From positions 69,302 through 133,301 of the forward strand of contig JAQUOV010000003.1 in the NCBI GenBank assembly GCA_028716965.1: a stretch of DNA of 64,000 nt, in the 5' to 3' direction. Under the pieces are notes generated by a model. The model searched no databases, was not told where the DNA came from, and saw nothing but the letters and a program-made list of their open reading frames with translations. Both the position numbers and the translations under genes were made by a program. Within the stretch, counting starts at the first letter, position 1, and every line of letters begins with the position of its first letter. The DNA is from Candidatus Omnitrophota bacterium. Its GTDB lineage: Bacteria > Omnitrophota > Gorgyraeia > Gygaellales > Profunditerraquicolaceae. Positions 1-60,000 of the stretch are shown one piece after another.

Positions 1-3000
1 GATGTGACCGCTGCCGATAATACCCCGCTTACTTCAGGTAACGAAATCTTCAGCGCTTCTTCCGGAGTAACATAATCAAAAATAATTATTATCCCCAAGC
101 GCTTTTCTCCCCTTTCATTCATCTCCCGGCGCAACTTTACGGCTTGCGAGATAAAATCATCTAAATTAACCCTGCTTGCGTTTAATAACCGTCCTGCATT
201 AATCCCGCCACAGGCTGCTACACCGGCGGCAAAAGACTCTTTTTTCTCTATCAAGGCGATTAAATCAGGGGATATTCTTTGCTTCTTAACAAGCGGGGCA
301 GCCCTTGACTGAAGCAAATAAACAGTCGTCTTGCCATCTCTGGTTTCAGAAGTCAACTCTACCTCCTGAGGCTCCCCTTCTTTTTCCTCAAGCTCTTCAC
401 AAATTTGGGAGAATCTTAAGAATAAATCAGGGTTAGTTTCTTCAAGCGCCGGACCGCTATCTTTGCCTTTCTGTATTCTGCTGACTAATTGTGAATGCCT
501 CGTAGTGCCGGATACCAATCCAAAGCCCTGCGCGCATGATTTATAATCTCCGTGTATAATGCTTTCACTGCTGGCAAAATCACGCGAGAAAACAACTGCT
601 GTCCCTGAATCTCTGTTTAAATTTCCAAATACCATCTCCTGCAAAAGGCAGGCTGTGCCCCAGGCGGACGAAATTTTAAACCTCTGACGGTATCGTAATA
701 CATTCTCTTTATCCCAGGAAAGAAATATCTCGCTGATACAATCTAAGAGGATCTGAAAAGGATCACATAATCCCTCTTCAAAATCGGGCTTGGCCTTTTT
801 AATCTCATCTTTAAATAAGTTAATAAGAATGGTTAAATCCTCTGCGCTGAATTCGCGGATGGTCAGATCTTCTGCTTTTACGGATAGCCCACTTCGATTT
901 ATTATATTGGCCTTCAACTCATCTATCATATATGAGAACCTGACAAATTCTATGCCTGCAAATGCCGAAGCATATGTTCCCAGGAATGTCCTGTAAACGC
1001 CATGGACAAATGAAGACTCTTCTCCTTCAGAAACCATACTTTGCGCAATTGCATCGCTCATAGGAACATTTAGAATCGTATCAAGCTGCCCAGGAAGGCT
1101 GATAAATGAGCCGCCGCGCACAGAAAGCAACAATGTTCCTTTATCAGGCTGTATTTCCTGCCTTGCTTGTATAACTTTTTTTCTTAATCTATCGCTAAGA
1201 AGATTTAAATCAAACGGGAACACCTTCCTAGTTACTGCTTCAAGCTTCAATATTGCATCAACAACCATTCCCTTAAATTCTTCATGGCGGCTGCCGCCGG
1301 ACTTCCATAGTTGGGAATCTCTCCAAGTATCAGTAGTGAAACAAACCCAGGCCGGAACAGTAATACCTAAATGCGCCCGGCTCCTTAAGTTATTCGCTTT
1401 TCCTCCCAAAAGAGCCATAGATATCTCTTTATCCACTTGCGAATAATCCGCAACATAAACTGGTTTTTGCTTCCTTCCCACGGCTATCGCATCTGCTTTG
1501 TCCAAACATGCTTCCACGGTTTTAAGCGCCGTAATAACATATTTCTCAAGAAGCCCGATACAGGCTTCCTGCGCGACTAAATCGCCGATAAACTTCTCCT
1601 GCACATATGCAAAATGCTGTTCATCGTTAAGTTGAATTCCTTGCGGAGGATTGCGGTATTCCGCGCGTAAATTATTTTTGCCAATAGTAGAAGCCATATA
1701 TTTTGGAATATCACCAAAAGCATGATTAAAGAAATCCAGGAAGCGCATTCTTTCCTCATCCAGCAGGCAAAGGATATCCCTGAGCTGGCCGATAGTAAGC
1801 GTTTGTGTTTTAAGCACTTTATTAATTTCAACCAGTCGTTTCGTTGCTAAACCCTGAAACTCAATTTTGTCCAAAACAAGCGTAAGGGCCTCAATAACAA
1901 GTGGGAAATCTACTCCGGGCCCTTGAGCAATGGAGTCTTTAAATTGTTGATTAAACAATTCTTCTAAAATGATATCTTCATATACTTCGTATTGCCTATC
2001 CTTGTTAAAATCGAAGAATTTCCTTTCTTCATAACGGCCATAATACCCAAAGAGCTCAAATCCCCACTCAACTCTGGCCATGTGTCTTCTGGAATACATT
2101 TCTTTGCTGATTAATAATTCTTCGAGAGGGGTTAAAATGTAGCTTTTACTGGTCCGGCGTATCTCTGCTATCTTCTTTAAAGCTGAAAAGTAATCCCCCC
2201 CGTCAATAAATAACGCTACGTCTTTATCAAGCCCTTCTTTTCTGAAATTGCCCTTTATGCTCTCGGCATCGGGATACCGTTTAGTGAGCCATTTATGCAA
2301 TTCCAGGAGAGATTTGATTACCTTTCTTTCCATTTCATTGGCGACACTGATTCTCTCAAAAATCGCATCCAGCATCTCAAGGGGGATTAATACAGGATTG
2401 TCTATATCCTCACCCGTAGTTTCACTATATAGCTGCATAGCGCTTTCCAATATACGATGCGAAGAGTCCATAAAAGAGCAACTGAATGAACTAAAGACCT
2501 CGGCTTGGGCCTGTGGTTTTATGAATTCCTTCACAAGGAGCGGGTTTTGGTTTTGCAAGGCAGAAATTACCGCAAAAATAAAGTCTTTATCGTCTGAGCT
2601 CGGATTTCGATGTAACTTCAGCCTGATATATCTAAATAAATTATTCTTCCTTACATAAAATTCATCAAGCCACTCAGAGAGCTTGCGAATCCTATCTACG
2701 CAATCTGCAGATATATCAATGCCATAGGGTACTGAACGGCAAAGTAGATTAGTTAGATAATAAACACCGCCGATATTACTATTTAAAAGCTCGCTTATGA
2801 CCTCTTGTATGAAATCATCTTCAGAAAAAGAAATAAGTTTTAACCTTAGGGCACAAATAAGAAAAACGATTGTCTGGCGGCCTGCCACAGGATCATGGCA
2901 GACGATTTTAATTATCTCTCTGATTAGGCGGGCATCAATCTGCGCTTGTGAATTTAATATTAAAATCAGCACTGTTCGGATCAACTTTTGATCTGTGTGT

Positions 3001-6000
3001 TTCATCGCCTCCCCCAAAGCTTTTTGTATACCAACTCTTCCGTTTGCAGTATCTGATGGTAAATCAGCTAAGAACATATAAATATTTCTATCAAGCTTTA
3101 GCGGTAGAGATGTCCAATGCCCTACTGCACATAGCCCCCATTTCTTCAATAATTCCTTAAATGGTTTTGTCCCAAGCATATCTTGCAGCTCATAGACTTT
3201 CCCGATAACATCCTTCAAAGCCGCCATTTCATTACTATCTACGTTAACCGTAAAGAAAGACGAATGCAGAAATTCGGAAAGGGTAAGAAATCCACTTAGT
3301 TCTTCCCCTGCCAGCACCCCGGCTAATGACACCCCTTCTTTCCCATAAAGATACTCAAGGTGGGATTGGTTAAATTGAGCGATCTGGTCAAAAATATTGG
3401 CAATAAAAATACGGGCGGCCCATTCTTCAGTATTGATCATCTGGCTTAACAGGATTTCTTCCGCAGCTTTACGTACCTTCTCTTTTCTTAACCAGATAAT
3501 TGCCCTGTCCCTGATTTCCCTGTCTTCATAAGGCATTACTAATCCCAATAAACTCTTGGCTCCATACTCACCCGTAAGAGCCAGGGCTTCCGTAGCGTAA
3601 TATTTTGTTCCATGTGAACAATCCGCGGTTAAAATCTCGTTAATGCGGCTATAAGCAAGCTCTCTAATCTTTGCCGGAATATCCCCGGCAGAAAGCAAAG
3701 CCGAGATAAGCTGAAGGCTAAAACTGCTTAATGAGCCTCCTGCCGAGATAAATAAATCACTTCTAAGAAAAGCTGACCTTAAATCTTCTGCGTTGCTAAG
3801 ATTTCCTCTCACAATATTTTCTATCTTACCCTGGCGTTCGGAAGTATATGTACGCCAAAAACCCATGCCCCACATCTTGTCCAAAAAATCCTTAAACTCT
3901 ATTAACGTCCTGCTCTCTTTATCGGAAAGACCACTTAAGCCGTAGTTCAAAGCTATTTTGCCTATTTCTTCATCCAGCGGGCTTGATGAGTAGTTGTCCC
4001 GGATGAGCTTGAGTGTTTCAAACGCCTGCGACATTTTAAACAAAGTATTTTCTGCGCCGACAGCCTTCTCGACCTCTCCAAAGGCGATGCCGGCAAAAAC
4101 AGCCCAGAAGAAGCTTTCTGTAATTACGGTAGTGCCGTATATCTTCAAACCGGAAAACAAAGTACGCATAAGTTCGTGTTTTGAAAATTTCTTGTAGATA
4201 AACCTGGAGTCCAAGGACCTGGCTAAACGGAAATAACCAAGGGAGTTGACTCCCCTATAACTCAAATCACTCATGATTGCTAATCTGTTTCTACAGGCAA
4301 GGCCCAGCATAAACACCGCTTCAAACATAACGCCGGCTAACTTGTTATTAATCAATTTTCTGTCAACCAGATACCGATACGCTTCTCTGAGATAAAAGGC
4401 TTCTATTATATACTGATCACCTGTATTGGGGATAAGCATGAATTCCGGCCGGTCTAAGATGCGGTCATAGATTATTGCCGAAGGATAAAACGCTTCGCCT
4501 GGAGTAGAAAAATTAACAGCTCCGGACTCTAAAGAAAATAATGCATTTATTGAACTAATTAACGAGAAGGGGCCTGTCATCTCCATTAACTGTTTGGAGA
4601 TTTCATGCTGCTCCGCTTGAGAATAGTTTTTACAGAATATACCAACGATAAAGTCCGAAGCGTCCCGCAAGATGTCTTTTTGTACCGGGGAGAATTCAAT
4701 TTCGCAGAAAGCAGAAATCATGTCTAATCTTCTTAAGGCATAATCGGAAAGCAAATCTCTTAATGTTCCTTCATAATACCTGAATAATGCGGCGGTGAAA
4801 TTAATAAATGCCTGCGCTCTCTCGGAACACAAAATAACCGTTTTCATAGATGACCCGTCGTCGTTAAACCTGAAGGTATCCAATCTTTTTTTTACACTAT
4901 TTATTGCCTTGGCCGCCTCATCTAAGCTACCAATTAACATATTAATTAATACCTGCGGCGCAAGATCCGGTGAAAAATAGTAATCTTTACCCTGAAAAAG
5001 ATCTTTGCTGTTTAGTGCCGAGGAAGACCGGATAAGGGGCACTCCTGGAAGCTTTAGAATCCGGATAGTTCCCACCTCACCCATCCTCCCATAATCTATT
5101 TTCCTTACGCTCAATGTTGCACTATTTTCCAGAATCGTTTCCACTTTTTTGTTCATTTTCCTAACAATGTTGCTTAATTGGGCAACTAAAACATGTTCAC
5201 TGTTCCGGAACTCTTCAATCAAAACTAACTCTTCAGGAGCTTCTTCAAATAAATCCCTATCAAAAAGTCTTCCCAACCATGGAGAATTTATTATAACACC
5301 ACGCATATACCCATTAATATTGGTGACAAATTCTTCAAATGTCTCAAGTAACCTTAAATGGAATTCGCTGCGTATATAGCAAGGATTAAGCGTAGCGGCT
5401 AATGCAACGCATGCTAAACTATGAACATATTGGACGAATCTCATGGATTCAAAATGTATATCACCCGGCACAACTACAGTTGCTCCCCGATATTCAACAC
5501 GGCTGATATTCTTACAGTCCTCAAATAATGAATTATGTAAGGAATGGGCTGGAACCCCCTTGCAGGTGTTGTCATAAAAATAAGATACCTCTCTTGAAAA
5601 ACCCTTGCGCAAGAGACTCCATTTAGCTTCAACCAAATATTCAAGACGGCTGCTTGGCGTGTAAAGAATTGCCTGTAGCGCCGCTATATAATTAACCAAT
5701 TTATTTAATGCCTCTGCATTCTCAAATATAAGGGGCAAGCTGCAAGATATATGTAAACTAAACCACCCCGGAGGAATTAATCCTATCGCAACCATAGAGT
5801 TGATAATTGTTGCTTGCGTAAACCAAGATGAAGCAGGAGGAGAAACAAACTCTATTAATTCATCCGGTCCAGGCACACCTAAATCTAAACCTAAATCTTC
5901 TTGCCAAATCTTTTTTGCTAATTGAAGCGCATAAAACTTGGAATAGGAATTCCATATTTCAACTTCCGTCCCTAAGGGCATAAACAAATTATCCCGACCT

Positions 6001-9000
6001 TCATTCAAGTTAAGACTGAAAAGAAAGTTATTCATAATGTAATTCACAACGTTTTCTTCTTTGCCGGCCTTAGAGAATAATTCAAACATTTTAACCGTTA
6101 TCGCCGTTTTCGCTCCCATACTCATAGTCTCATCAGACAAAAAATATCTTATTTCTGGAAGCTTAACCGAGTTCTTATATTTATGCAAAGCTACTTCATA
6201 CGGCTTACGGTATTCATCTAAAAACTGCAGCATAACACCATAATTGAAGAGATTCCCTGCTTCTTCCGAAGAAACAGGCAATCGGGCAGTTGCGGGAAAA
6301 AGCGGCGATCCTGCGATATGATATGCCTCTTCCCTACGGACCGAGCCTAAATAATACCTTTGACCTCCATAATAACCACCAATTTTTTCCTTACCGAATG
6401 GAACTTTTGGATAATTCTTGAGGCAATATTCTTTGCCTTTTGCATCTTGCTGAGAAAAATATTTATGGCAACAGACTAAATCTATAAGGGGCATTTTTGA
6501 ACTGATATACCGCGAGAATTGATTTGAATATTCTATTATTTCTTCCCCTATCTGGTATCTAACTTGCTTATTTATGCCATATCTACTATTTATTTCGATA
6601 TTATGGATAACCATGTTCCCCTTTATATCAATATACAGCCATGCGCACGCTATGGGATCTTTAATCTTCTCATCAATGATCTCTAAAGAGTTTATGCCTA
6701 TGTCAATAAGTCTATATAATATGGCATCGGGGAACTGATCGCTGTCCATCGCAAGGCAATAACCTACAAAATCACCTTGAAAAAGGTCATATCCAGGGTT
6801 CCTGCGTATAGGCCTGATTACAAATACCCCTCCGGGAAGGCTTTTGTCAATGCAGGAGAAACGTTTCTCCCTGAATCGTTTATCCTCTGATTTCCCCAGC
6901 CATCTTTCTATATCTAAACCATAATCTTCCATCCCTTCTCTTACCAGCCTATTATGTTCAGCTATTTTCCTACCCATAGCATCTTCCTGTTTTTCATTCC
7001 CGATAAAATCCCACACCCTATCTTCAAATAATGCTTTCAAAATGCCTTTAAATAGAGGTACTGAACCCGGGGCAATTCTTAATAAATTCTCTTTAGCCGT
7101 ATTCAACCTGGGTAAAAAAGGCATATACAGTTTATTGTGTATATCAGGATTTATGTTTCCCGCTTGCACACCTAATGAATCAGCAAAATAAGGCAAGAAC
7201 ACTCTTGCTAATTCATTATATAAATTATTGACCCCTCTAATAAAATTACGGTTATCCAATAATATGAGGTTATTTAATTTCTCGGTAAAAAGTTGAACAC
7301 AGCCTGCTTCTACAAAAGAAGAGGATATATCTAATACCTTAAATAATTCTGTCATTGGCACACGGTATTTTGAGCGGGAAGACCTGGTTTCTATTTCCTT
7401 TTTAATCAAAAACAGGGAATTTATGATCTCTTCGTTTTGCAAGCCTTTTTCTTTTGATTCTAAGAAACGGGCAACTACCCGGGAGTGGGAGCTTTGGCTA
7501 AACAAACTCAACATATGTTTAATGGCACCGGGCAATATTGATTCCAATTTACCGGCTAAAGGGAGATGCCTTTGCTTAAATATCATTTCATTGATTTTCC
7601 GTTCAGGATTTATTCTCCTGTTCTGCTTAATAAAAGCACCTAAAAGACTATCCAACAGCGTTTGGATGGGGGAACTGGATTCCTTTAAATCGCTTAATAG
7701 CGCGGAAACATCTTCCTGTGTAATTTTGTCTGTCAGCTTAAATACCACCTTTGAAAAATATGTTTTTCCCCTGGAATAAGCGAGATTATTTACGAGATAC
7801 TTATGAAAGCTGACGTCACCTTCCAGCGCATTTATAAAAGAGCCAAGAAATAGAACGGATGGACCTTTGGTTTCTAAAGATGCCAAGGCTTCATAAAGTG
7901 ACTGATTTTTAGGGAAGGATTCATTTTTAAGAGGCCACTTATTTGAAAACTTGTATTTCAATAACCTCCATAATTGCGTGGCGGCGAACAGATTATTGTA
8001 TTCTCTGGCAAATTTTGCCAATATGTTCCAGGCGCGCGACCTCCAGTAGGGAGTGAACCTTATAATATGGTAAAGGTACCGGGTTATTTCCTCAATTGCC
8101 GCCGGCTCAACAGCAACTTTGAGAAAAGCGCTTATCTCTTTTAACAAGCCTTCATATTTCTTATCCGTAATATCCCACTCGGAAGCCAATTCCCATCTTA
8201 GGCACAAGGTTTTTGCCTTGCCCAATTCGCTATCTTTAAAAGGAGCCGGAGGCGCCCGGGTAAAACGTGAAAGAAAACGCAAGTTCTTATCCCAAGGCGT
8301 AAATATAAGCGTGTACTTTTTACCGGAACCAATATTAACCTCATAAAAATCATCCTTGTCTACTACCATATCTACCGATTCCAACGCTTTCCTAAGAATA
8401 CCCGGAACACAGGCAGATTCCTTTTTTTGCTCCTTTGCCGCTACAAATAAAGTAACGATATTGTTCCCCTGTTCATTATTTACCTCTATCCTATAAGCGC
8501 TAAAGGCTTCATTAAGATATATAGCCCAATGCTGACGGGGTTTCATCATGCTGAATCTTTTGTCTTTGGGCCAACGGTTAACTAACCAGGTAAAAGGTGT
8601 CTCCTTTGCGGGGTTCCTGAAATCAGAGTATATAAGAGTTACCCTTATTGCCGCTATGTCATTAACCAGGGCTTTATCCTTAATAAAGTCCTGCAATCTT
8701 GACCTATCCAATAGCCCCTCAAACATCTTCTGCCATTGATTATCAACAAAAACAAAGTTAAAACTCCACTCCAGGGCCGAACTGGAGGAAATTACCGGCA
8801 AGGCAACAGTGAATTCCGTATATTCCCCTGGTAAACTCTCCACACTTACATTCCCGCCAAGTCCGTCAGCAATCTTTTGTAAACGGTAAAGCGGCATATC
8901 TCCATTATAGGGGTAATGCGAAAGACCAGGGTCTGATTCCTTTAAGGAGTAAAGCGGCAAGAACAGGTAATCGAAATCCTCTTCCTTGATCCCTGCGCCT

Positions 9001-12000
9001 CCTTCATCACGTATCCGTATAATAAACCACTTGTTTTCATGGACAGCAAAGGACACGGAAAAAGTATGGGCGCCGGCCTGTTGAGCGTTCTTGAGCATAT
9101 AAGAGATTATTTTCAATAAAGCAAGCTGGACCGCTACTTTTATTGGCTTATTAAAAACCCTGTCTTCTATGAAAACTTTTATTTTAAAAGATTTCTCTCT
9201 CGCCTTTAATTCATTCCGGATACTTGCTACGATTTCACGTGCATCCATAGGTTGCGGTTGCGCTTTACCGGATAACATATTATTTCTAATACTAATAAGT
9301 AAAAATAATAATTTTGTGGTGTTTTTCCTTATAGTATTAACTTCTTCGAATTCCGGAGCGATAAACTCAATTTCGGCTAATATCGCGTGGATCTTTTTAC
9401 ATATTCCGATAATGTTTTCCACAGCATTATTTAAATTTGCTTCTAATTTACCTAAAGGCCTTGCGTCATTTTGCTCTTCCCTTCCAACAATCCTTAGGGC
9501 ACTGATTATTAAATCCTGGATAGCCCGGGTTTTCTCGTTTGCGCTACCTTTAGTCTTCCTCGCCAGCCGATCAGTAGATTGCCCCATTGCATTAAGAGGG
9601 TTCTTTATAATATGGCTCATTCTTTCGGAAACGATGCAACGGCAATTCTTACCGAATAATTCTTCCGCTTCCCTTCTTACATCTTCGTCAGTATCGCGCC
9701 TTAGTCTTGAAATAAGAAAAGAAGCAACCACTATACTGATCCGGCGCAAATCCTGCACCAATAACATCCTGATCTGCCTACTGCCATTTTCCACAATGCC
9801 TTCCAATGCCTGCTTTGCTAATTCATCATTTATTTCAGCGTGAAACGCAAGGAATTGAAGGACCGAGAACCTTTCATTGTCGTCAGGAATGAAGCTAAGA
9901 TAACGTTGTTTATGCAAAGTAAATATCGTTTCTTTCTCCTTACCCTTTATCGCCTGGGGAGCAAGTATACTGATCTTCGGGTCATTTCCGCGCGCGTTAG
10001 TCCCATATGTCTTGCCATCTTTTGGATCGCCTTTTTCGTCAGCTATATAAAAATACATGGTAAAAGGACACTTCTCTTTCCCTGCGGTTGGCTTACGAGG
10101 ATAACAGCGGACTTCAATTCTAAAAGCATTACCGGATTTCTCAGCGCTGTCATTATTATTTTGATAAGGGCTTACTCTTGTCCAAACATGCTCCAAAATC
10201 TTTATTTCATGCTCTCCCGAACGCTCTGCCTGATATACATCTACAATATGCATATCGCTGTAGTCTCCGCGCGCTTTTCCATTCTCAAACCAGGCAATTA
10301 CTTTAATATATTTATTTAACAAGGCTTCGCACTCAGCCTTTGTAATTACTTTATCCAGCATGATCGTTCCATACAGATAAAACGGCTCCAGAAAATATAC
10401 GCGTTCTGGAGGCATCATCGAATGATCCCTGGTAAGACTCCACCTTAATGCATCCCCGGTTATTATGCCGGGCCAATTTTTCTGATCCTCCAGCAAAGGA
10501 GAAGCTCCTACTTTAGAATATTCGCTGGCGCCGGCCTGGGCAAACAGATGAACAATCATTTCCCGAGGGACAAGAGAGGAGAATCTCTGCTGCATCCTGC
10601 GCAATAATGTGTATGTGTCATTTACCCCCTTGTCACTAAGTATATCGTTGATACTAACCTCAAAATCAAATTCCAGCCTCAGGAATTCCTGCTCCAGTCC
10701 GGTCAATGGGTTCTCATTATTAAGCAACCTGTACGCCAACCAATCTCTCGGCCCGAATAATAAAGGATGGATGGAGCCTTTGAGGTAATGCGCAACTTTC
10801 ATCCCTTCCCTGACTTCAAGCAGTTCATGCATGCGGTGATGAAGCGTTCCCCGCAAAATAATTATTTGTGTAGAAGGCTGGTTGGCTGTTATTTTCTGGA
10901 TAAACCCGTTTAAACTATGATCCCTAAGAAGATAGTTCTTCGCCCATGCTTCCACGGAATCTTTCAACAGAGATAGGTAGCGTACGGGGTCTTGCTTGCG
11001 AACATCACCAGCCAGATACTCCAAAGACTCCCCCTTTATCCGCGATACCCAAGCGTTAAATGGCAAACAGTTATATTCGGAAACAATTTTTATTTCCGGG
11101 AAACGGTTTAAGAAATCGTCAAGCCCTTTGCGGTAAGCCAGGGAAACAGGATCAAGCAACATTCCGGGAACAACTAATCTGCGTTGCCTGGTAAAAGAAA
11201 GAGCGCGTTCCTTACCATCTTCAAATCTACGCCTTAATTCAGCCGGATGTTTGTAAATATGCCTTTTCACCAATTCTTCCGGCCTTATATACGTCCCGTG
11301 CTCCTCCAAAATGAATACGATAGGCAAACCTGAAGCCTCTGCGACAATTTTTTCCAGGATTATTCTGACCTCTTCAAAATGAGCAGCATACCCATGTGGA
11401 CCGTAGATATAGGCGATCTTGGCTACGCTCTCCTCACCAAAAATCACTTGCAATCTATCTACTAAAACAGCCAGTGCCTTGCCTTTCTTGGGGCCTAAAT
11501 CATATCTGGAAAGGATCTTTTCTAAAGCTTTTGCCTTTTTTGTCTTGGAAGAATTCTTCTCGGAAATAATCTCCCTAACTCTATTTAGAATAACGGTATC
11601 ATTATTTATATCATTAACAAGATTAGACAGCAAATCTTCCATTGCAAGCGGGCTGGAGGAATCATTGATACTGTAATTTCTTACTAAGTAATTAAAATTT
11701 ACGGGAATGTGGGTACTTAAATGGGGAATTTCTGATTTTTCAGGGAGGCGCCCTGCGTTATAAGCTTTTGTTAAAATACGGCAATCTTCATCCGTAAGGC
11801 CTATCAGAGAGCCTAAAGCGCGGATTAAAATATTCTCTAAATTCATCCCCTTCTGGAAGTAAACAACTATCCTGGATATGCTGAATTTTACTGCAAGATT
11901 AATTATTGTTTTACGGCTAACCTCAAGGAATGCATAAGCTTCAATTGCAGTAACGGCAATCTCCACATCTACGTGTCCGCCAAAGGTGAGATTTTCGCCG

Positions 12001-51000: not shown

Positions 51001-54000
51001 AGCACCTCTTTATTGCCTGTCTCTTCGGATAACAAATCATTGTAACTCTTAAACAGCGTAGGCGCTTCGCCGATATCGATGAAGCGGGATTCTTTTCCGG
51101 CGTCAAGGTAAACTAAACCGTCAACGCTTTCGCGTTCGCAGAGGACTTCTTTTAAACGCTGGGCAAGGTCATATATATAACCATAACGTTCAGTATCGGC
51201 AGCAGTAAGCTCATTGGTATGGGATTTCTTGGTCTTAAGAAGCAGGTATTTCTGCAGGGTCGGCTGGGTCACTGCCTGCAGGATATCAATAGAGAAGTCC
51301 AGGTTGAGCATCTTTAATTGCTGTTTAAGCTCTTCCTGCCTGTCCTTAGTCTCGGTAACAGCCAACTGCTTATGCAAGGCAAGTTTCTGCTGGAAGATGG
51401 TTTCATAATAGAGATCCACTACTACCCTGGCTGCCTCCAGGCTGTATCTGTGGTTCCACCAGTTAAAATTAGTATGGCCGCGTTCAAGGATATCCTTTAA
51501 TTCCATCCAGGTCATCGGCTTTTCGATCATCCTGCTGATCAACAGCGGGCTGTCTTCATCAGGCCAGATCTGGCCTAACTGGCTGATCTTGTAAAGCACC
51601 GGAGTATGGATCTTGCCGAGCCTGCCTTTATCCTTACCTAAGTACTCTTTTAATTTATCGTTAAGTTCGGATTCGGATAGCTTAAGGATAAGACGGTTAC
51701 CTTCCCTGTATATCCAACCCATGGCAATACACTCCTCTACTGCCTGCCGGGCATCCGCATAGTTGCCGAATACCTCAATGCCTTTGCCTAAGCCTCTTAC
51801 CGGCTGGGATATCGCCCAGAACTGGTCATTGGAGATGCAGGTAATAGAGCCTTTTGGAGTATCATCCAGTAATTGCAGAGCCTGCAGGTAAACCTGCTCA
51901 TTCAATTCCAGGGTAACACCTTTGTATACTGCCGGCACGATATTGCAGCCTTTATAGCCAAAACGGCTGGCAGTAAGAGGATAACCGCGGCTGCCTGTGC
52001 CTGCGGTATGTATCATCAGGACTTGCGGGTTAACAGGAAGCCTGCCTTCTTTGATAAGGCCAAGGATATAATGCTGGACAAAGACAGCGCCGTCAAAGTT
52101 ATACATCTCTACCTCTATACCTTCCATGGTACGGGAGATAACTTCTACCTTGGTGTCTTTGAAGAGTTCGCTTATAGGATGGCTGTTAAAACGCTGTCTT
52201 AAGAAGATTGCGTCTTTTTCGGAAGCAGTGGTATAAAACACCAGGTCAAAATTCCTGCCGCTTGCCAAATGCTCCTGCGCGCGCTGGATATAGTAGAGTG
52301 AAGCTTGGGGAGTCTGGTTCTTTACCGCGCGCAGGCCGATAATGAACTCTTCATGTTCCTTAATTAAGGTGATGAGCTCTTCCGGAGTATTCTTCTCAAG
52401 GAAGTTAAGCACTTCAGTACGGTAAATCTTATGTTCAAGCCAATGCCCGATTACGGCCTCAACCAGCTCAAGCTTATTTCTTAATGGCGCCAGGTTATCA
52501 AAGTGATTTTTCATCTCTCGGCTGATAAGCTCTTGCTCAAGAAGGTTATTAGTAAACAGGCGGCGTTCAAAATTCGGCAGCGCGCGTATAAATAGTTCAT
52601 GGAAGGAATTGACATCAGTATTATTTAGAAGCGGGGCAAAGAATGATGCTGCGATATGCTGGATCCTTAGTGAATTTGAGCGGGTTTTCTTGACAAAAGA
52701 ATTTATTAACGATACGATGGCAGCGAGTTCTTCCAGGGCTGTCTCTGCCGGGTTTGGCGCCCGCGCCTGCACGTGCTTAAGCAGAAGATGTAAAAGTATA
52801 TGGCGGAACTCTTCATAGAGCAGCTGATGGTATAAAAGGCTTGGCTCCTCCAGGAGAAGGTTATCAATAATTAAGGTAAGTTTATCTTCATTGTAGTAAA
52901 CAGCAGAGAGTTTTTTATAACCGGTGCGTACCTCAAGATTCAGCCCGGCCTCAATAAGCTCAGGATACATTTTACATCCTGTTTCATATATACCTGCCAG
53001 GTTCTTGGAAGCCGCTATCCTGCCTGCGCGGCGCAGGCTTGCGATAACATCAGGGAAGCTTCCGCTTAAGAGGACCTGCGAGATCTGTCCTTCAGAGAGA
53101 CGGTTAGCAAAAGAAGAGGTAAAGAGCGTGGTAACAAAAGCACCTAATCCTTCCTCCCCCAGCGCCGATGAGGCCCCCGAGATCTGGCTGTACAGCCAGT
53201 TTGCCGCATTGATGGTGTTCTGGATATATGTTCCCCTTTCCTGCGGGTCATATCCTTTAAAGTCGTTGTTTCTGTAATTATCGCGCTCTCTTAAGGCCTT
53301 GATCTTTTCAAGCATCCAGGCGGATATCTTGGGATCCTCCTCCTGCTGATAAAGCTTTAGATAATCCGCCGCGTCATCTCCAATACCTAAGCGGTATAAC
53401 ATCGCCGGCCTAAAGAAGCTGTCTAAGTAGGCTGTATCCTGGCGCTGGTCTAATACATCCCAGAGCCCCTGTATATAAAGTGGATCTGCTTTCTGGATAT
53501 CAGAGGACAAAACATAGTAAGCGCCGAGTATCCCTTTGGCTGGATCTTTGTTATCAATAGCATGGTCTAAGGGATATTCAACCATCTGCAGGATATTGTT
53601 TCGTAAGACAATTGTCTTGGTAGAACCGGCACTTACATTGATTACCTGCTTGAGATTGCCTCTTAACATCCAGGCAAGGGAGCCTGGACCGGCAATAAGC
53701 GTACCGCAGCGGCTGTTGACCACAACGCTGTCTACAAGGCTGCCTGCATTGATTATAGAGTTGATCACCACTACCTTTCCTTTGATATGCAGGTCCCCTC
53801 TCTTGTAAGAGGCTTCTGCCTCAGGGCTGTTGATAAAGAGAGGATATTTGCTTGATTGGGGGATCTTCAGCAGCGCACAGAGCACCTCTTTATTGCCTGT
53901 CTCTTCGGATAACAAATCATTGTAACTCTTAAACAGCGTAGGCGCTTCGCCGATATCGATGAAGCGGGATTCTTTTCCGGCGTCAAGGTAAACTAAACCG

Positions 54001-57000
54001 TCAACGCTTTCGCGTTCGCAGAGGACTTCTTTTAAACGCTGGGCAAGGTCATATATATAACCATAACGTTCAGTATCGGCAGCAGTAAGCTCATTGGTAT
54101 GGGATTTCTTGGTCTTAAGAAGCAGGTATTTCTGCAGGGTCGGCTGGGTCACTGCCTGCAGGATATCAATAGAGAAGTCCAGGTTGAGCATCTTTAATTG
54201 CTGTTTAAGCTCTTCCTGCCTGTCCTTAGTCTCGGTAACAGCCAACTGCTTATGCAAGGCAAGTTTCTGCTGGAAGATGGTTTCATAATAGAGATCCACT
54301 ACTACCCTGGCTGCCTCCAGGCTGTATCTGTGGTTCCACCAGTTAAAATTAGTATGGCCGCGTTCAAGGATATCCTTTAATTCCATCCAGGTCATCGGCT
54401 TTTCGATCATCCTGCTGATCAACAGCGGGCTGTCTTCATCAGGCCAGATCTGGCCTAACTGGCTGATCTTGTAAAGCACCGGAGTATGGATCTTGCCGAG
54501 CCTGCCTTTATCCTTACCTAAGTACTCTTTTAATTTATCGTTAAGTTCGGATTCGGATAGCTTAAGGATAAGACGGTTACCTTCCCTGTATATCCAACCC
54601 ATGGCAATACACTCCTCTACTGCCTGCCGGGCATCCGCATAGTTGCCGAATACCTCAATGCCTTTGCCTAAGCCTCTTACCGGCTGGGATATCGCCCAGA
54701 ACTGGTCATTGGAGATGCAGGTAATAGAGCCTTTTGGAGTATCATCCAGTAATTGCAGAGCCTGCAGGTAAACCTGCTCATTCAATTCCAGGGTAACACC
54801 TTTGTATACTGCCGGCACGATATTGCAGCCTTTATAGCCAAAACGGCTGGCAGTAAGAGGATAACCGCGGCTGCCTGTGCCTGCGGTATGTATCATCAGG
54901 ACTTGCGGGTTAACAGGAAGCCTGCCTTCTTTGATAAGGCCAAGGATATAATGCTGGACAAAGACAGCGCCGTCAAAGTTATACATCTCTACCTCTATAC
55001 CTTCCATGGTACGGGAGATAACTTCTACCTTGGTGTCTTTGAAGAGTTCGCTTATAGGATGGCTGTTAAAACGCTGTCTTAAGAAGATTGCGTCTTTTTC
55101 GGAAGCAGTGGTATAAAACACCAGGTCAAAATTCCTGCCGCTTGCCAAATGCTCCTGCGCGCGCTGGATATAGTAGAGTGAAGCTTGGGGAGTCTGGTTA
55201 TAAACATCCCTTAAAGAAGAGACCAGCCAGGAGTAGCGCTCTAGATCAGCGAATATATCCTCTAAAACAGTAACCCTAAGATAATCTAAAATCTCTTCGC
55301 GGTAGAGGTTATGCTGAAGGTAGTGTTGGATGAGTTCAGGGATTATTGCTTTAGTTGAGTAAAGCGGGGGTAGAGAGTCTATCTCCTGTTTGATACCTTC
55401 GGAAATAATCTTGTGATTTAGTAATAGATACAGCCTTTCTTTTTTGTTTGGAGACAGGGAGCGTAATAATATTTTATAGAAACCATTTTTATCGGTAGAG
55501 TTGATTAGGGGCAAGATAATGTTCTTTTGTTTCTTTGGGGGGAGCTTACCGAACATTTCCAGAAGCCGCATATCCGTGAGCAATTCTTCTAAAGCAATCT
55601 CTTCAAAGTTAGGCGCGCGGGCGCGGACATTGCTCATAAGTATCTGTATTAGCAAATGATGGAATTCTTCATGCATAAGCAGAAGTTGAAGCAGGCGGGA
55701 GTGCTCTAAAAGAAAATCTTCTATTAAAAGAGTAAGCCTGCCGGTGCGGTAATATACAGCAGAGAGTTTATTGTAGCCAGAGGTAATCTCTATCTGGAAG
55801 CCGGATTCGTCTAATTCGGGGTACTCTTTCTTGGCGCGGTTAAATACTTCAGAAAGGTTGCGTGCCTGATTTAACCTGCCTGCTGAACGCAGCGCGGTTA
55901 AAACTTCCTCTTTACTGCCGCGGTAAAGCACATTGAGCACCTGGCCTTCAGCGAGGCGCGTGGCGATTGAAGAGGTTAATAAGGATTCGGACGCGAGAAC
56001 TGGAGAGGCCGCTCCGTTTTCAATGCTGCTCCGATACAATTCCAGATATTTGGCAGCCGATATTTCCCAGCCGAAATTGCCATTTATGGCATTATTAATT
56101 AAAGCCAGCCTGTCTTCATCCTTCTGCCAAGCCATTATCGCCCGTTTAATAGCCGCTACCATTGCATCGGTGTTACACGGTTCAAAGAGAAAACCGTTTC
56201 CCTGCTTTGTCTTGGGATTAAATTCTACTACGGTATCTGCCAGGCCGCCTGTTTCGGAAACAACCGGGATTGTTCCGTTAACAAGGGAATAGATCTGGGT
56301 TAATCCGCAAGGTTCATACCTGGAAGGCATCAAGAATATATCCACTCCTGCCACAAGCAGCTTACCCAACGTTTTTATAACAGGATCATGCTGCTTGATT
56401 TTCATTCTAGTGCCTATACCATAATGCAGGCTGACCCTGCGCCTTAGCTGTTCAGGGAGAAGCCGAGTACGGTCTGTAAATTCCCTAAACAAGCTGTCAT
56501 CATCAGAACCAATCAATACAAACTGCACCCCCAGTTGCATAATTTCCTCAAATTTGTTCAGGATAAAATCAGCTCCTTTTTGCCTTGCAAAGCGGGTAAA
56601 CACTCCGATGATTGGCATATCAGAAAGCTCTAAATTCAATTCCCTTTGCAGCATAGCTTTATACCTGCCTTTGCCTGCTAAAACATTAGGCAGGTTATAT
56701 TCCTCTTCATTTCCTAATGATTTCCATTCATCATAATCTACGCCATTAAGTATTCCATGAAGATGCGCTTTCCTCTCTGATAGAACGCCTTCTAAGCCGG
56801 CGCCGAATTCTTCTCCGGGCTTTAAGATTTCCTTGGCGTACCTGTCGCTTACCGTCGTAATCTCATCCGCATAAATAATCCCGCCTTTCATAAGGTTAAT
56901 CTGGCCGTAAAATTCCAAGCCGTCAATGTTAAGCATCTCTTCCCTGTTTAACCCGGTAAGCTCAAAAAGATGATCATCAAACTTTCCCTGATAGTCAGGG

Positions 57001-60000
57001 CCTAAATTATGAATAGTGTATATTACCCTGCTATTTTCTAAAGATGGCTCATTCTTATAGTCGCTATGCTTTTTAAGTAACGGGGCAATCAAAGCAGCCT
57101 GCCAGTCATGAGGATGGATAATATTCGGGTTTAACTGGAATTCCTTAACCAGCTCTAAAGCGCCCTTAGAAAGAAACACTGCCTGTTCAAACATTAATTC
57201 TTTCAATAAGCCGGCGCGCTCATGCATATAGATCTCCCTACCCAATCTTTGGGTAAGATAATCCTGCGCAAGCTCAAAGTCAGAGTTTTGCGCTCCTAAA
57301 TAGAGTTTCTTGGAATATAGTGGGTGCTGCAGGAAGAATACAGTTACACCGTTAGATTTTGCAATCCATACCGGAGCGAATTCTTTTTTGTTGCCTATTT
57401 TTATTATTAAATCCCTGCCGGTATATTCAATGCCAAGCTTATTTCTTTTATCCTCATTAATGTCATCATAAAGCAGGGTACAGACAGATACTATCTCGCC
57501 GAGCTCGGATTGCGCTTTGGGTAAGATGCCTAAAACATCAGCTAAGCCGCCTGCTTTCGCGTAGGGGACAATCTCCGGGCTGACATGGAGTATCTTTAAC
57601 ATCTCAAGCGCGCTTGAAGCCAAGAGAGGCGGCGCGCGGGGCTGGGATTGTTTCAAGAGTAAAGGCGAAGAATTCGAGCCATTTAAATTATCCATAGGAC
57701 ACCTATATCCAGGCCGTGGCGTCCAACCGTATGGACAAACCCAGCCTTGGTCGCCACAATATACTGTAAAATCAGGACAATCTTTAATTTCAGATGTCGT
57801 AGCTGGCTCAGAAGGGATTTGTCGCTCAACAAGAAGCTGTTCCTCTGCTGAACTGATATCTTCAGCAACTTTTGCTGCAACTATATTAATTGCAAGGTTA
57901 GCTCTTTCTGGCGTCAATGTAAGTTTGCCGTAAGATACCAAGAAAATATTGTTATATTTCATATGAATATTATTAATCTGATCCTGAATTTTCTTTTTCT
58001 TTTCAAGACCATTGATTTTCTCTGAAGGATAAACTTCATTGCCCCAATCATCCACTTCTTGTATAAAACCAGTAATAATGTTGCGATATATGCTGTGAGT
58101 TCTAACCGCGTCTGCCTGAAAATAGCCGTGATAATCCCTTCCGACGAATTCCCATAATTCCATTATGCCATTTACATCCATATGTTTAATTACTTGATTT
58201 AAAGAATATGTTAATTTCTCGAGTCTGGTTAAATCAGCTAATAAATATCTGGCTATTCGCGATGCGTCTATTCCTTCTTTAATAATCTTTTCGGTTACAA
58301 TACATAGCCTTTTGAATAATTCCTGCTTATCATATTTTGAGACATCGCTATAATAATATTCTACTTTATTTATACAGTTGTTTGCTATCGATTCTTCAAT
58401 ATTTAGGTTTTTGATTAAATGTGTTTCAAATATACACATTCTTAACTTATGTAAAAATGATGGTTTTACTGATATTATATCGCCTTGCGACTGCCAACAA
58501 AGCCAACTTAATGAAAATACTATCTTGTTGATAATAAGAAACAGACCTCTCGCCAATCCTAAACCTGCGATGAAAATTAAACTGATCATCCAAGGCGATA
58601 ATGAGGTTATATAAGAGACTGCTGTGCAGCTGGGGACCAACAGCATTAAGCTGCTAATAGATAATACTGATAATATTTTAGCTAAGCGGGAGTTATCTTT
58701 TGGTTGTATCGGAGAGCTTACACCTTGTTTCCGGCTCTTAGATAATTCTTTTTCTATCTCCACTAATACCTGTTTGAGGCGAGCGATCTCTTTCGTGGTC
58801 TGGGATACCATGCGCTTGTCATTATGGTTGATATCCAGCGAGGCTATGGCTTGGGTTAAATCCATAACTATAGCAGTACCTTGCTCACGCACTTCTTCGG
58901 GTAGGGTGTTGACAAAACTAAGGGAATCCTTTATCTCCACTAATACCTGTTTGAGGCGAGCGATCTCTTTCGTGGTCTGGGATACCATGCGCTTGTCATT
59001 ATGGTTGATATCCAGCGAGGCTATGGCTTGGGTTAAATCCATAACTATAGCAGTACCTTGCTCACGCACTTCTTCGGGTAGGGTGTTGACAAAACTAAGG
59101 GAATCCTTTATCTCCACTAATACCTGTTTGAGGCGAGCGATCTCTTTCGTGGTCTGGGATACCATGCGCTTGTCATTATGGTTGATATCCAGCGAGGCTA
59201 TGGCTTGGTTCATGGTCGCGCTAATACGAGCCGCATGTTGCAATTTCAACTCTACATCCAGGCTATCCATAAAAGATTCGCTTTTTTGGACCAATGATAT
59301 TACTCTTTCCAGCGAAGTAATATACGCTAATGTTGCCGCCAGCCCACTTATTGATTTACTGCTGCTTAAGATGGTTTTTAATTTAGCTCTTTGCTCGTCT
59401 AAGCTCTTCAGGGTCTGCTGACATAAACTGTACACACTACCAGGTAAAGAGGTCATGTAACCGACTATTGCATTTAATTTCTTCATTACATTAATGATCA
59501 AATTCAACTCCTGCCTGGCCCACTCACGTTCAGTATTTTCATATAACGAACTTATTTTCTTTTTCGTATGCTCTATCTCCTCAGTAATTGCGGCCAATTC
59601 ACCGGCCTTCCGGGAACGGATGTCTTCAGCTATGCCCTCCGCGGCAATTTCTCCTTTTAGTTCGGCAATCTTATCATTATCTCTTAACAACTCTTCTCTC
59701 AATGGGGCAACCTTACTATGAAGGGTGTTGACGGCTTTCGCCAACTCATCAGCCGGAGTACCTTCGGGCGTAAGCCCAAATTCTTCAACCATAGCGGCCG
59801 CATATTCTGTTTTCCCAGGGAAAACCAACTTTCTCATCTCAGTTAAAGCCCCCTCAATATAATTGTACGCTTCCTGATGGAAGAATATCCTAGTCTGCTG
59901 TAAGCGGGCTTCGACTGTGCTGCGGGTTTCAAAATCAAGATTATCCCGGACAGCTTCAAAATCAGCGACTATACCAAGATAAGACTCCTGCAGTTTATTC

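Follow-up and report, generated by a model that had tools for sequence, protein, structure and literature searches.

A stop-free 64-kb reading frame from a Candidatus Omnitrophota bacterium encodes part of a giant protein with two glycogen synthase modules and further predicted sugar-nucleotide enzyme domains

The 64,000-nt stretch of contig JAQUOV010000003.1 from a Candidatus Omnitrophota bacterium (assembly GCA_028716965.1), hereafter called the window, was found to be an internal piece of one genuine giant gene of at least 21,332 codons. The gene is read from the minus strand, and both of its ends fall outside the window. The encoded chain carries two glycogen synthase (GlgA) modules along with other predicted sugar and nucleotide domains, and it is very probably a sequence-unique new member of the known 'Archaeovorin / multi-enzyme metabolic' type of Omnitrophota giant proteins. 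With moderate confidence, we regard a genuine Omnitrophota-type giant gene, whose product would be a membrane-anchored, cytoplasm-facing and covalently tethered hub of nucleoside diphosphate (NDP)-hexose enzymes, as the best explanation of the data. Our account of how such a protein would work is more tentative.

A six-frame count revealed no stop codon in the minus-strand frame at offset 2 over the full 64,000 nt, compared with 649-1,814 stops in each of the remaining frames, and translation of this frame gave 21,332 residues without a single stop symbol. Because this one frame stays open from end to end, the window contains no complete open reading frame (ORF) of at least 300 aa. The GC contents of the three codon positions (approximately 0.50/0.35/0.45) and the off-frame stop densities were even across every 3-kb slice. 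The stop-free frame and the uniform codon-position GC therefore indicate that the ORF is real and that it is longer than initially described; the original prediction, made from the letters of the window, had placed one minus-strand frame across 300-57602, and the ORF reaches past this interval on each side. Reassignment of a stop codon was considered and is unneeded, as the frame is free of TAA, TAG and TGA altogether. An Rfam search of the window gave no match. We also observed that plus-strand frame 0, which lies antisense in the codon register, contained 649 stops compared with 994-1,814 in the other non-coding frames, with open runs of at most 819 nt. This low count probably reflects the codon composition of the sense frame and not the presence of antisense genes.

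The translated chain was scanned with Pfam in chunks of up to 5,000 aa and then in 1,000-aa tiles, and it was also compared with NCBIfam and PDB sequences. The domains above the gathering cutoffs were PF08323 (twice), PF00534 (twice), PF21269, PF01933, PF01937, PF00753, PF02518 (twice), PF00072 and PF01326 (Table 1). The GT5, GT-B, YvcK and PPDK_N assignments of the original prediction were all recovered above cutoffs in this way, and DUF89, two HATPase_c domains, a receiver domain, HEAT repeats and approximately 12 transmembrane (TM)-like helices were added to its list.

Two full GlgA-like domains had been placed at 31440-33020 and 56030-57602, and the profile searches located them at very similar positions. 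Against TIGR02095, which describes the 'ADP-glucose type', module 1 scored 374.4 bits and module 2 scored 396.0 bits, both above the curated cutoff of 328.45, and the alignments covered profile positions 1/2-476 of 477. The PDB matches of both modules were GlgA/SS4 chains at near full length. A residue-level alignment with E. coli GlgA as the reference revealed that module 2 keeps K15 (of KxGGL), H161, R300, K305 and E377. Module 1 agrees with module 2 at the catalytic positions, with KAGGL, HNL..YQG, the R/K residues, EPCGL and TGGLADT all present, so that equivalents of these catalytic residues are kept in both modules. The two modules are 52% identical to each other in a self-BLAST comparison. 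When genome contigs were scanned with the segment that spans GlgA module 2 and the adjoining HIT-like domain, the matches were mostly ordinary GlgA genes, and the best stand-alone GlgA reached no more than 38% identity; the GT5 domains of other giant fragments were approximately 27% identical to the modules. Because the mutual identity exceeds both of these values, the presence of two GlgA modules is most simply explained by internal duplication.

Upon comparison with stand-alone GlgA (E. coli 2qzs and A. tumefaciens 1rzu), both modules were found to align end to end and to keep the catalytic residues and the TGGLADT loop. However, stand-alone GlgA is a protein of approximately 480 aa, whereas the enzyme is here embedded twice in a chain of more than 21 thousand amino acids (kaa). 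Unlike the setting of stand-alone GlgA, no adjacent glgC/glgB/glgP operon is present, and the sole pyrophosphorylase-like domain is UGPase/GlmU-like and highly divergent.

The region first described as an OtsA/SPS-like GT-B enzyme resolved to a TreT-like GT4 enzyme. It aligned to residues 17-391 of 6zj4 in four pieces and keeps GGGVA, HDPQP, R.D..KDP and EGFGL. The N-terminal TreT_GT1 domain is shared with TreT (GT4; PDB 6zj4 and 2x6q) and scored 63 bits against PF21269 (cutoff 27). In contrast, the score of 68 bits against NF041139 was far under the equivalog cutoff of 775, and the module contains approximately 200 aa of insertions relative to TreT. Judged from these alignments, aa 7829-8385 is best named a TreT-like GT4 glycosyltransferase and not TreT proper. 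This module is colinear with the giant fragment P0004.

Directly C-terminal to GlgA module 2 lies the segment in which a HIT-like GDP-hexose phosphorylase motif, VNHLHFQ, had been recognized. A direct Pfam scan at this segment gave no match. When aa 10870-11235 were compared with a database of 5.8e9 sequences, five homologous proteins were retrieved (E 4e-5 to 5e-4), all of which carry the GDPGP1 families PF26216/PF26217 and one of which is named GDP-D-glucose phosphorylase 1-like. In the alignment of the segment with these homologues, PFDP, H.LL.P and ASVNHLHF were invariant. The AlphaFold2 (AF2) model, built from this six-sequence alignment, was poor, with a predicted local distance difference test (pLDDT) score of 47, and its sole significant PDB match in Foldseek, the Ap4A phosphorylase Apa2, is weak corroboration only. 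We accept the segment as a GDPGP1-family homologue, a membership that rests on pairwise homology. The histidine motif HLHF(Q) and the upstream H.LL.P are shared with GDPGP1/VTC2 (HIT superfamily, GalT/Apa branch), whereas the identity is 25-29% and the domain is here fused to a glycogen synthase.

Nucleotidyltransferase-like domains had likewise been proposed, and this assignment stood at the fold level for aa 5139-5836, while it was not supported for the duplicated module of approximately 800 aa described below. The AF2 model of aa 5139-5836 had a pLDDT of 68, and its top 50 Foldseek matches in the PDB were all UAP1/UGPase/GlmU/eIF2B/RmlA/GlgC structures (E down to 3.6e-6, prob 1.0, TMt 0.35-0.62). 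The AAGxGSRFS loop is conserved in this block, and a left-handed beta-helix (LbH) is suggested by sub-threshold matches to LbH_EIF2B, with an E of 1e-3 in the block itself and approximately 2e-4 in three homologues; a profile of the block also matched the start of the GlmU LbH (E 0.018). There was no sequence-level Pfam NTP_transferase match for this region. The fold-level comparison points to a nucleotidyltransferase (GT-A-like) fold followed by an LbH.

The pyrophosphorylase-like block is the middle part of a conserved super-module that begins with DUF89/ARMT1 and ends with a split CofD/YvcK-like domain. The super-module is colinear with P0011 at 43-51% identity and, at lower identity, with P0013, P0017, P0021, P0015 and P0012 (local BLAST), and the shared order includes the unknown region between the LbH and CofD. 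In P0012 (L083 1803-6005), a complete separate gene of 1,400 aa, DUF89 and the pyrophosphorylase-like/LbH block occur together with a guanylate kinase. At least one large super-module thus appears to have been acquired en bloc, and this block is also found as a gene on its own; the DUF89-pyrophosphorylase/LbH-CofD arrangement may itself constitute a functional unit that is so far uncharacterised. We also observed the super-module, in colinear form, in about ten further proteins, and the gene upstream of P0012 is divergently transcribed.

Both of the two proposed YvcK/CofD-like domains were found, and they differ in strength. In the first, the C-terminal half scored 67.8-72 bits against PF01933 (cutoff 30; E 6e-20), the N-terminal half matched with an E of 1.6e-3, and the YvcK model TIGR01826 matched with an E of 2e-14. 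The N-terminal half (profile positions 4-155) and the C-terminal half (133-273) are apparently parted by an insertion of approximately 260 aa. The second is significant over positions 3-293 of TIGR04357 and scored 20.5 bits against PF01933, with both matches under the curated cutoffs. The predicted cupin (PMI-like) domain showed sub-threshold similarity only, to Cupin_2 (PF07883; 19.3 bits compared with 27.2, E 9e-4) and to the WbuC cupin (19.7 compared with 42, E 6e-4), and a PDB profile search with this region was empty. A cupin-like block followed by GlgA was found in the same order in the Omnitrophota protein P0003.

Among the remaining domains, the metallo-beta-lactamase (MBL) fold was confirmed above the PF00753 cutoff with its HMHEDH motif, and the PPDK_N-like ATP-grasp domain was confirmed above the PF01326 cutoff. 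The latter matched residues 16-358 of PPDK in the PDB (E 1.5e-29) and positions 4-336 only of the 865 in TIGR01828 (E 3e-44); of the three PPDK domains (ATP-grasp, phospho-His and PEP/pyruvate), only ATP-grasp falls within the window. The chain runs beyond it to the window end (window 3-272, aa 21243-21332), and the last residues (..VSGVLSAAVT) are without an obvious TSH motif, which we take to be that of the phospho-histidine swivel domain. The response-regulator receiver domain keeps equivalents of DD, D57, S87 and K109 in a pairwise alignment and is predicted to be phospho-competent. HATPase_c domain 2 proper lies at aa 18291-18402 and matched a PrsK-like kinase model (E 9e-10), with HisKA at an E of 0.54 only. 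An extra HATPase-like domain was considered at aa 9650-9790, and a Pfam scan of this segment did not support it. As for the proposed M48-like HExxH motif, HELKH is present but the M48 domain is not established, since PF01435 gave 20.2 bits (cutoff 20.3) and its alignment covers profile positions 61-94 of 186; HELKH is best treated as a motif and not as a peptidase domain. A second candidate metalloprotease motif, HEEFH at aa 2776, was ruled out, as the paralogous copy reads YEEFRH.

Table 1. Positions of the ORF and of the features predicted within it (window coordinates; residues numbered from the first codon in the window).
Feature	Coordinates (residues)	Strand	Basis
Single open reading frame	1..64000 (codons at 3-63998)	minus	stop-free frame offset 2 of reverse complement, 21,332 aa or more, running past both window ends
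N-terminal membrane region, ~12 TM-like helices, mostly hairpins	58530..63461 (aa 180-303, 924-1325, 1775-1823)	minus	Kyte-Doolittle scan, flank charge counts
GlgA module 1, ADP-glucose-type glycogen/starch synthase, GT5+GT1	56028..57596 (aa 2135-2657)	minus	PF08323 E 4e-56, PF00534, TIGR02095
Two copies of ~800-aa module, unknown fold	50208..55553 (aa 2816-3616, 3777-4597)	minus	self-BLAST, exact repeat mapping
Conserved super-module: DUF89/ARMT1, then pyrophosphorylase-like+LbH, then split CofD/YvcK-like with C-terminal extension	42303..50156 (aa 4615-7232)	minus	colinearity
DUF89/ARMT1-like damage-control phosphatase domain	49083..49796 (aa 4735-4972)	minus	PF01937 E 3e-20, NF040824 E 2.5e-10, PDB 2g8l
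Sugar-nucleotide pyrophosphorylase-like domain (GxGSRFS..HK loop) + LbH	46491..48584 (aa 5139-5836)	minus	AF2 + Foldseek
CofD/YvcK-like domain 1, split	43848..45785 (N-half aa ~6072-6302, C-half aa 6567-6717)	minus	PF01933, TIGR01826, PDB 2hzb
MBL fold, HMHEDH, RNase Z/Apyc1-like	41034..41555 (aa 7482-7655)	minus	PF00753 E 4e-7, RNase Z models E 2e-13, PDB Apyc1
TreT-like GT4 glycosyltransferase, large insertions	38844..40514 (aa 7829-8385)	minus	PF21269 E 2e-17, NF041139 E 5e-19, PDB 6zj4
Possible bicupin, directly upstream of GlgA module 2	33840..34481 (aa 9840-10053)	minus	sub-threshold Cupin_2, cupin_WbuC
GlgA module 2, ADP-glucose-type glycogen/starch synthase	31473..33020 (aa 10327-10842)	minus	PF08323 E 3e-58, PF00534, TIGR02095
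GDPGP1/VTC2-like HIT-superfamily NDP-hexose phosphorylase domain, VNHLHFQ	30399..31211 (aa ~10930-11200)	minus	homologues with PF26216/PF26217
HATPase_c domain 1	29283..29603 (aa 11466-11572)	minus	PF02518 E 1e-9
M48-like HExxH region, HELKH	26706..26807 (aa 12398-12431)	minus	PF01435 20.2 bits, cutoff 20.3
Second TM-like hairpin	18630..18776 (aa 15075-15123)	minus	hydropathy, K/R flanks
CofD-like domain 2	15672..16595 (aa 15802-16109)	minus	TIGR04357 E 4e-8, PF01933 E 3e-4
Response-regulator receiver domain	12813..13139 (aa 16954-17062)	minus	PF00072 E 1e-15, CheY PDB matches
Weak HEAT repeat + histidine-kinase-like HisKA(?)/HATPase_c domain 2	8793..9884 (aa 18039-18402)	minus	PF02518 E 2e-7, HEAT_2 E 1e-5
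PPDK N-terminal ATP-grasp nucleotide-binding domain	273..1454 (aa 20849-21242)	minus	PF01326 E 2e-15

To place the protein among known families, we considered both its relatives and its domain repertoire. An exhaustive HMMER search with aa 5100-6299 found 29 relatives among 1.84e9 representatives, nearly all of them multi-kaa proteins and mostly fragments that fill their contigs. A word-indexed homology search with 5,000 aa gave only four weak matches and was probably limited by its word prefilter. A scan of JGI metagenomes with aa 1-400 gave no match, and an alignment-based scan returned the contigs of P0012 only; together with the genome scan described above, these searches recovered the source contig from neither the GTDB representatives nor the JGI metagenomes. 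The window contains no marker genes. Among the relatives with taxon names were nine partial proteins from Ca. Omnitrophota, which are fragments of giant genes and are annotated as 'glycogen/starch synthase', 'DUF89 family', 'CofD family' or 'YvcK family'.

The original prediction knew of no described protein with such an architecture, a claim made outdated by two studies that report the same Pfam families in Omnitrophota giants. According to West-Roberts et al. (2023, bioRxiv 10.1101/2023.11.21.568195), HEAT is the commonest domain in the 'Archaeovorins' and GT5 glycogen-synthase-like domains are second; GT1, HATPase_c and PPDK_N also occur often, there are many TM regions, and domains of glycolytic enzymes are occasional. 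Nielsen & Lui (2026, bioRxiv 10.64898/2026.06.07.730766) catalogue 916 Omnitrophota proteins of at least 10 kaa and define a 'multi-enzyme metabolic' class. The sugar-metabolism module of their class 1 contains PF08323 (153 proteins), PF00534 and PF00072, its signalling module contains PF02518, and HIT domains are scattered. Of the catalogued giants, 80% are sequence singletons and 94% are membrane-associated, and the sparse matches of the window protein fit this singleton share. At no less than 21,332 aa, the window protein lies above the catalogue threshold of 10 kaa, while 'giant' in West-Roberts et al. (2023) refers to more than 30 kaa.

With class 1, the window protein shares a length above 10 kaa, many distinct Pfam domains that tile the chain with none dominating, the PF08323, PF00534, PF00072, PF02518 and HIT content, HEAT scaffolding, interspersed TM helices and few relatives. 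In contrast, the domains typical of that catalogue, namely PGM/PMM, ROK kinase, radical SAM, methyltransferase and NUDIX domains, were not found in the 21 kaa of the window, and TreT-like, GDPGP1-like and DUF89-pyrophosphorylase-CofD content is not itemised for class 1 in the text consulted. The GT5, GT1, HEAT, HATPase_c and PPDK_N domains and the many TM regions that it has on a single ORF are shared with the Archaeovorins, whose type is the giant protein of Velamenicoccus archaeovorus LiM; this assignment is made by domain repertoire. Pfam revealed no SecA_DEAD, C39/S8 peptidase, NUDIX, methyltransferase or glycosyl hydrolase domain in the 21,332 aa of this internal fragment, whose termini lie outside the window. 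The TPR domains of the Archaeovorins were likewise unseen, as were their flanking loci, of which one kind resembles type II secretion systems (T2SS) and another has pilZ with a sugar ABC importer; the window is internal and contains no flanking genes.

The TM-like hairpins have outer flanks rich in lysine and arginine (K/R) and short uncharged loops, and a Pfam tile scan found no domain in the N-terminal membrane region. By the positive-inside rule, these K/R-rich flanks would mean that the long soluble stretches face the cytoplasm. GlgA, TreT, PPDK and histidine kinases use nucleotide or NDP-sugar substrates, and a cytoplasmic placement is suggested for this reason as well. Between the TM clusters, a 177-nt tandem repeat was observed at 58755-59285, with two identical copies and a third at 69%; the 59-aa repeats that result (aa ~1572-1748) belong to a charged stretch that resembles a coiled coil.

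Along the chain, the N-terminal cluster of TM-like helices is followed by a soluble stretch of approximately 13,000 aa that carries the sugar enzymes, DUF89, CofD, MBL and HATPase_c domains, and then by the second TM hairpin, CofD-like domain 2, the receiver, the histidine-kinase-like ATPase and the PPDK ATP-grasp domain. In the arrangement that we tentatively propose, the helical hairpins would anchor the polypeptide in the inner membrane, and the enzyme-bearing stretches would face the cytoplasm, where ADP-glucose, NTPs and ATP are available. The result would be a covalently tethered hub around NDP-hexoses. In particular, the pyrophosphorylase-like domain would activate hexose-1-phosphate, and the activated hexose would be consumed by the GlgA modules to form alpha-1,4-glucan and by the TreT-like module to form trehalose or a related glucoside. 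Off-pathway NDP-hexoses and sugar phosphates may be recycled or removed by the GDPGP1-like phosphorylase and the DUF89 phosphatase, the YvcK-like domain may bind NDP-sugars, and the embedded kinase-like and receiver domains may regulate activity in cis. The suggestion of a covalently tethered metabolic assembly line is a reasonable hypothesis to the extent that normally stand-alone enzymes occur in one frame with intact key motifs; however, nothing here shows the function in storage glucan, exopolysaccharide or compatible-solute synthesis that had been attached to it. A more specific version, which we consider doubtful, is a cis-tethered inner-membrane NDP-glucose metabolon with a built-in phosphorelay switch. 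It would unite sugar activation by the UGPase/GlmU-like domain, both glycogen synthases, the trehalose-synthase-like enzyme and two 'metabolite-proofreading' activities (the GDPGP1-like phosphorylase and the DUF89 phosphatase), and DUF89-pyrophosphorylase/LbH-split-CofD would be a hitherto uncharacterised pathway unit that also occurs as stand-alone proteins of 1.4-2.9 kaa in Omnitrophota.

Several points weigh against the cytoplasmic hub. Domains above the Pfam cutoffs account for approximately 11% of the chain, which leaves approximately 89% without such a domain; most of the protein is unexplained, and the pathway logic is drawn from the recognisable minority only. The substrate specificities of the predicted TreT-, pyrophosphorylase- and GDPGP1-like modules are putative, given the missed equivalog cutoffs and the large insertions. 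The topology derives from a crude hydropathy and positive-inside analysis. Most domains of giant proteins are predicted to be extracellular by West-Roberts et al. (2023), and DeepTMHMM places the metabolic content of a 147-kaa multi-enzyme giant outside the cytoplasm (Nielsen & Lui 2026). The latter authors leave the choice between a cytoplasmic membrane-anchored and an extracellular location open and treat the sugar and signalling modules as compatible with an inner-membrane-anchored cytoplasmic reading. Finally, the relatives with taxon names are weak-to-moderate homologues, and some of them carry other labels, namely one Desantisbacteria protein, one Theionarchaea cluster and a 2.5-kb contig labelled Aminicenantes.

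The placements just cited are also the basis of the alternative that the protein is an exported, membrane-anchored effector whose enzyme domains lie outside the cell and bind or remodel the envelope glycans of prey or host, with the GT5/GT4 domains acting on extracellular glycopolymers, possibly in reverse. The authors who described the Archaeovorins favour such an extracellular, predation-linked role and point to T2SS-like loci and sugar importers (West-Roberts et al. 2023), and the content of the 147-kaa giant is predicted to lie on the periplasmic/extracellular face (Nielsen & Lui 2026). HEAT repeats and many TM helices in the window protein would also suit an effector. Nevertheless, we judge this role to be unlikely for the window protein: GlgA needs ADP-glucose, the PPDK ATP-grasp and HATPase_c domains need ATP, the pyrophosphorylase-like domain needs NTP, and the receiver likewise depends on cytoplasmic cofactors, and the cytoplasm-facing hub is favoured because the recognisable domains all share this need. 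Moreover, the K/R-rich hairpin flanks adjoin the long soluble stretches, the window yielded no signal peptide, dockerin, lytic transglycosylase or glycoside hydrolase, and West-Roberts et al. (2023) themselves call some of the localisations 'highly unlikely'. That the fusion is a matter of gene organisation only, with one chain, or pieces made from internal starts, being cleaved into conventional enzymes, appears distinctly improbable. The M48-like motif at the Pfam threshold and the existence of one super-module as a separate gene elsewhere are in its favour, but the M48 match spans just 34 profile positions, the window contains no established peptidase domain, and no linker or cleavage motif was seen to recur; the interspersed TM hairpins suggest an intact anchored polypeptide, and published proteomics is too sparse to decide (West-Roberts et al. 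2023).

We consider it highly improbable that the chain is a largely non-enzymatic scaffold, or 'domain museum', whose domains are kept for binding or structure or drift as mobile-element cargo with no coherent pathway. The large share of residues without a recognised domain and the insertions and sub-equivalog scores of the TreT-like, CofD and pyrophosphorylase-like modules would fit such a scaffold, and 'integrative-element passenger genes' are among the surviving hypotheses of Nielsen & Lui (2026). However, the 64 kb contain no stops or frameshifts, and purifying selection on activity is suggested by the conservation of every catalytic residue that was checked, in the two GlgA modules, the receiver and the GDPGP1-like and MBL motifs. 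Least probable of all is that separate genes or organisms were mis-joined, with the perfect repeat within the duplicated module, which has abrupt edges and sits where the composition of the ORF is most atypical, as a symptom. A stretch of 21,332 stop-free codons cannot survive random joins when the other frames stop every 12-33 codons; the codon-position GC is uniform throughout, and the repeat offset is in frame. The DUF89-block-CofD junction recurs on independent contigs in P0011 and others, and the cupin-like-GlgA junction recurs in P0003, which argues against a chimeric assembly. P0010 matches the duplicated module independently, and giant ORFs of this type have been validated by complete long-read genomes (West-Roberts et al. 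2023; Nielsen & Lui 2026). On these grounds, assembly chimerism is very unlikely.

The duplicated module carries a HTAGTGSRGYPLT motif and an LbH-like stretch. Exact repeat mapping revealed a perfect direct repeat of 2,048 nt (2^11), in which 50272-52319 equals 53152-55199 at an offset of 2,880 nt (960 codons), with 832 nt of unrelated spacer between the copies. In this region the GC skew is approximately 0, GC3 is raised (0.53) and the tetranucleotide correlation is the lowest of the ORF, at 0.82 compared with approximately 0.94. The repeat may reflect a recent duplication or gene conversion, or else a polishing or assembly artefact. A weaker protein similarity runs on N-terminally of the repeat, where aa 2802-2933 resembles aa 3754-3893. 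No known fold was found for the module by Pfam (tiles and short segments), PDB profile search or hhalign against the pyrophosphorylase-like block, and its assignment as a nucleotidyltransferase, for which the motif HTAGTGSRGYPLT was the sole ground, was rejected. The only database relative of the module is P0010, at 51-55% identity. This ORF (L081 1-2544; JACNKL010000009.1, GCA_014382045.1) fills a 2.5-kb contig, is open at both ends and comes from a metagenome-assembled genome labelled Candidatus Aminicenantes. It probably represents a piece of some other giant gene, and a contig this short cannot be binned with confidence. Two further adjacent repeats of approximately 260 aa, 48% identical and without a Pfam match, were observed at 35253-36833 (aa 9056-9582).

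The architecture class to which the window protein is assigned has already been published, and no new category is opened by it. Among known genes, the giant multi-enzyme ORFs of Omnitrophota rank with the longest. In the present example the sugar-metabolism domains are not decayed relics, since each glycogen synthase scores above the cutoff of an equivalog-grade subfamily model and keeps every catalytic residue. The recognisable domains converge on one chemical theme, that of NDP-hexoses, and at least one super-module of 2.6 kaa appears to be a conserved, portable unit. Pieces of approximately 500-700 aa should be expressible, and these would allow biochemical tests of whether such proteins act as a cytoplasmic metabolon or as an extracellular effector.

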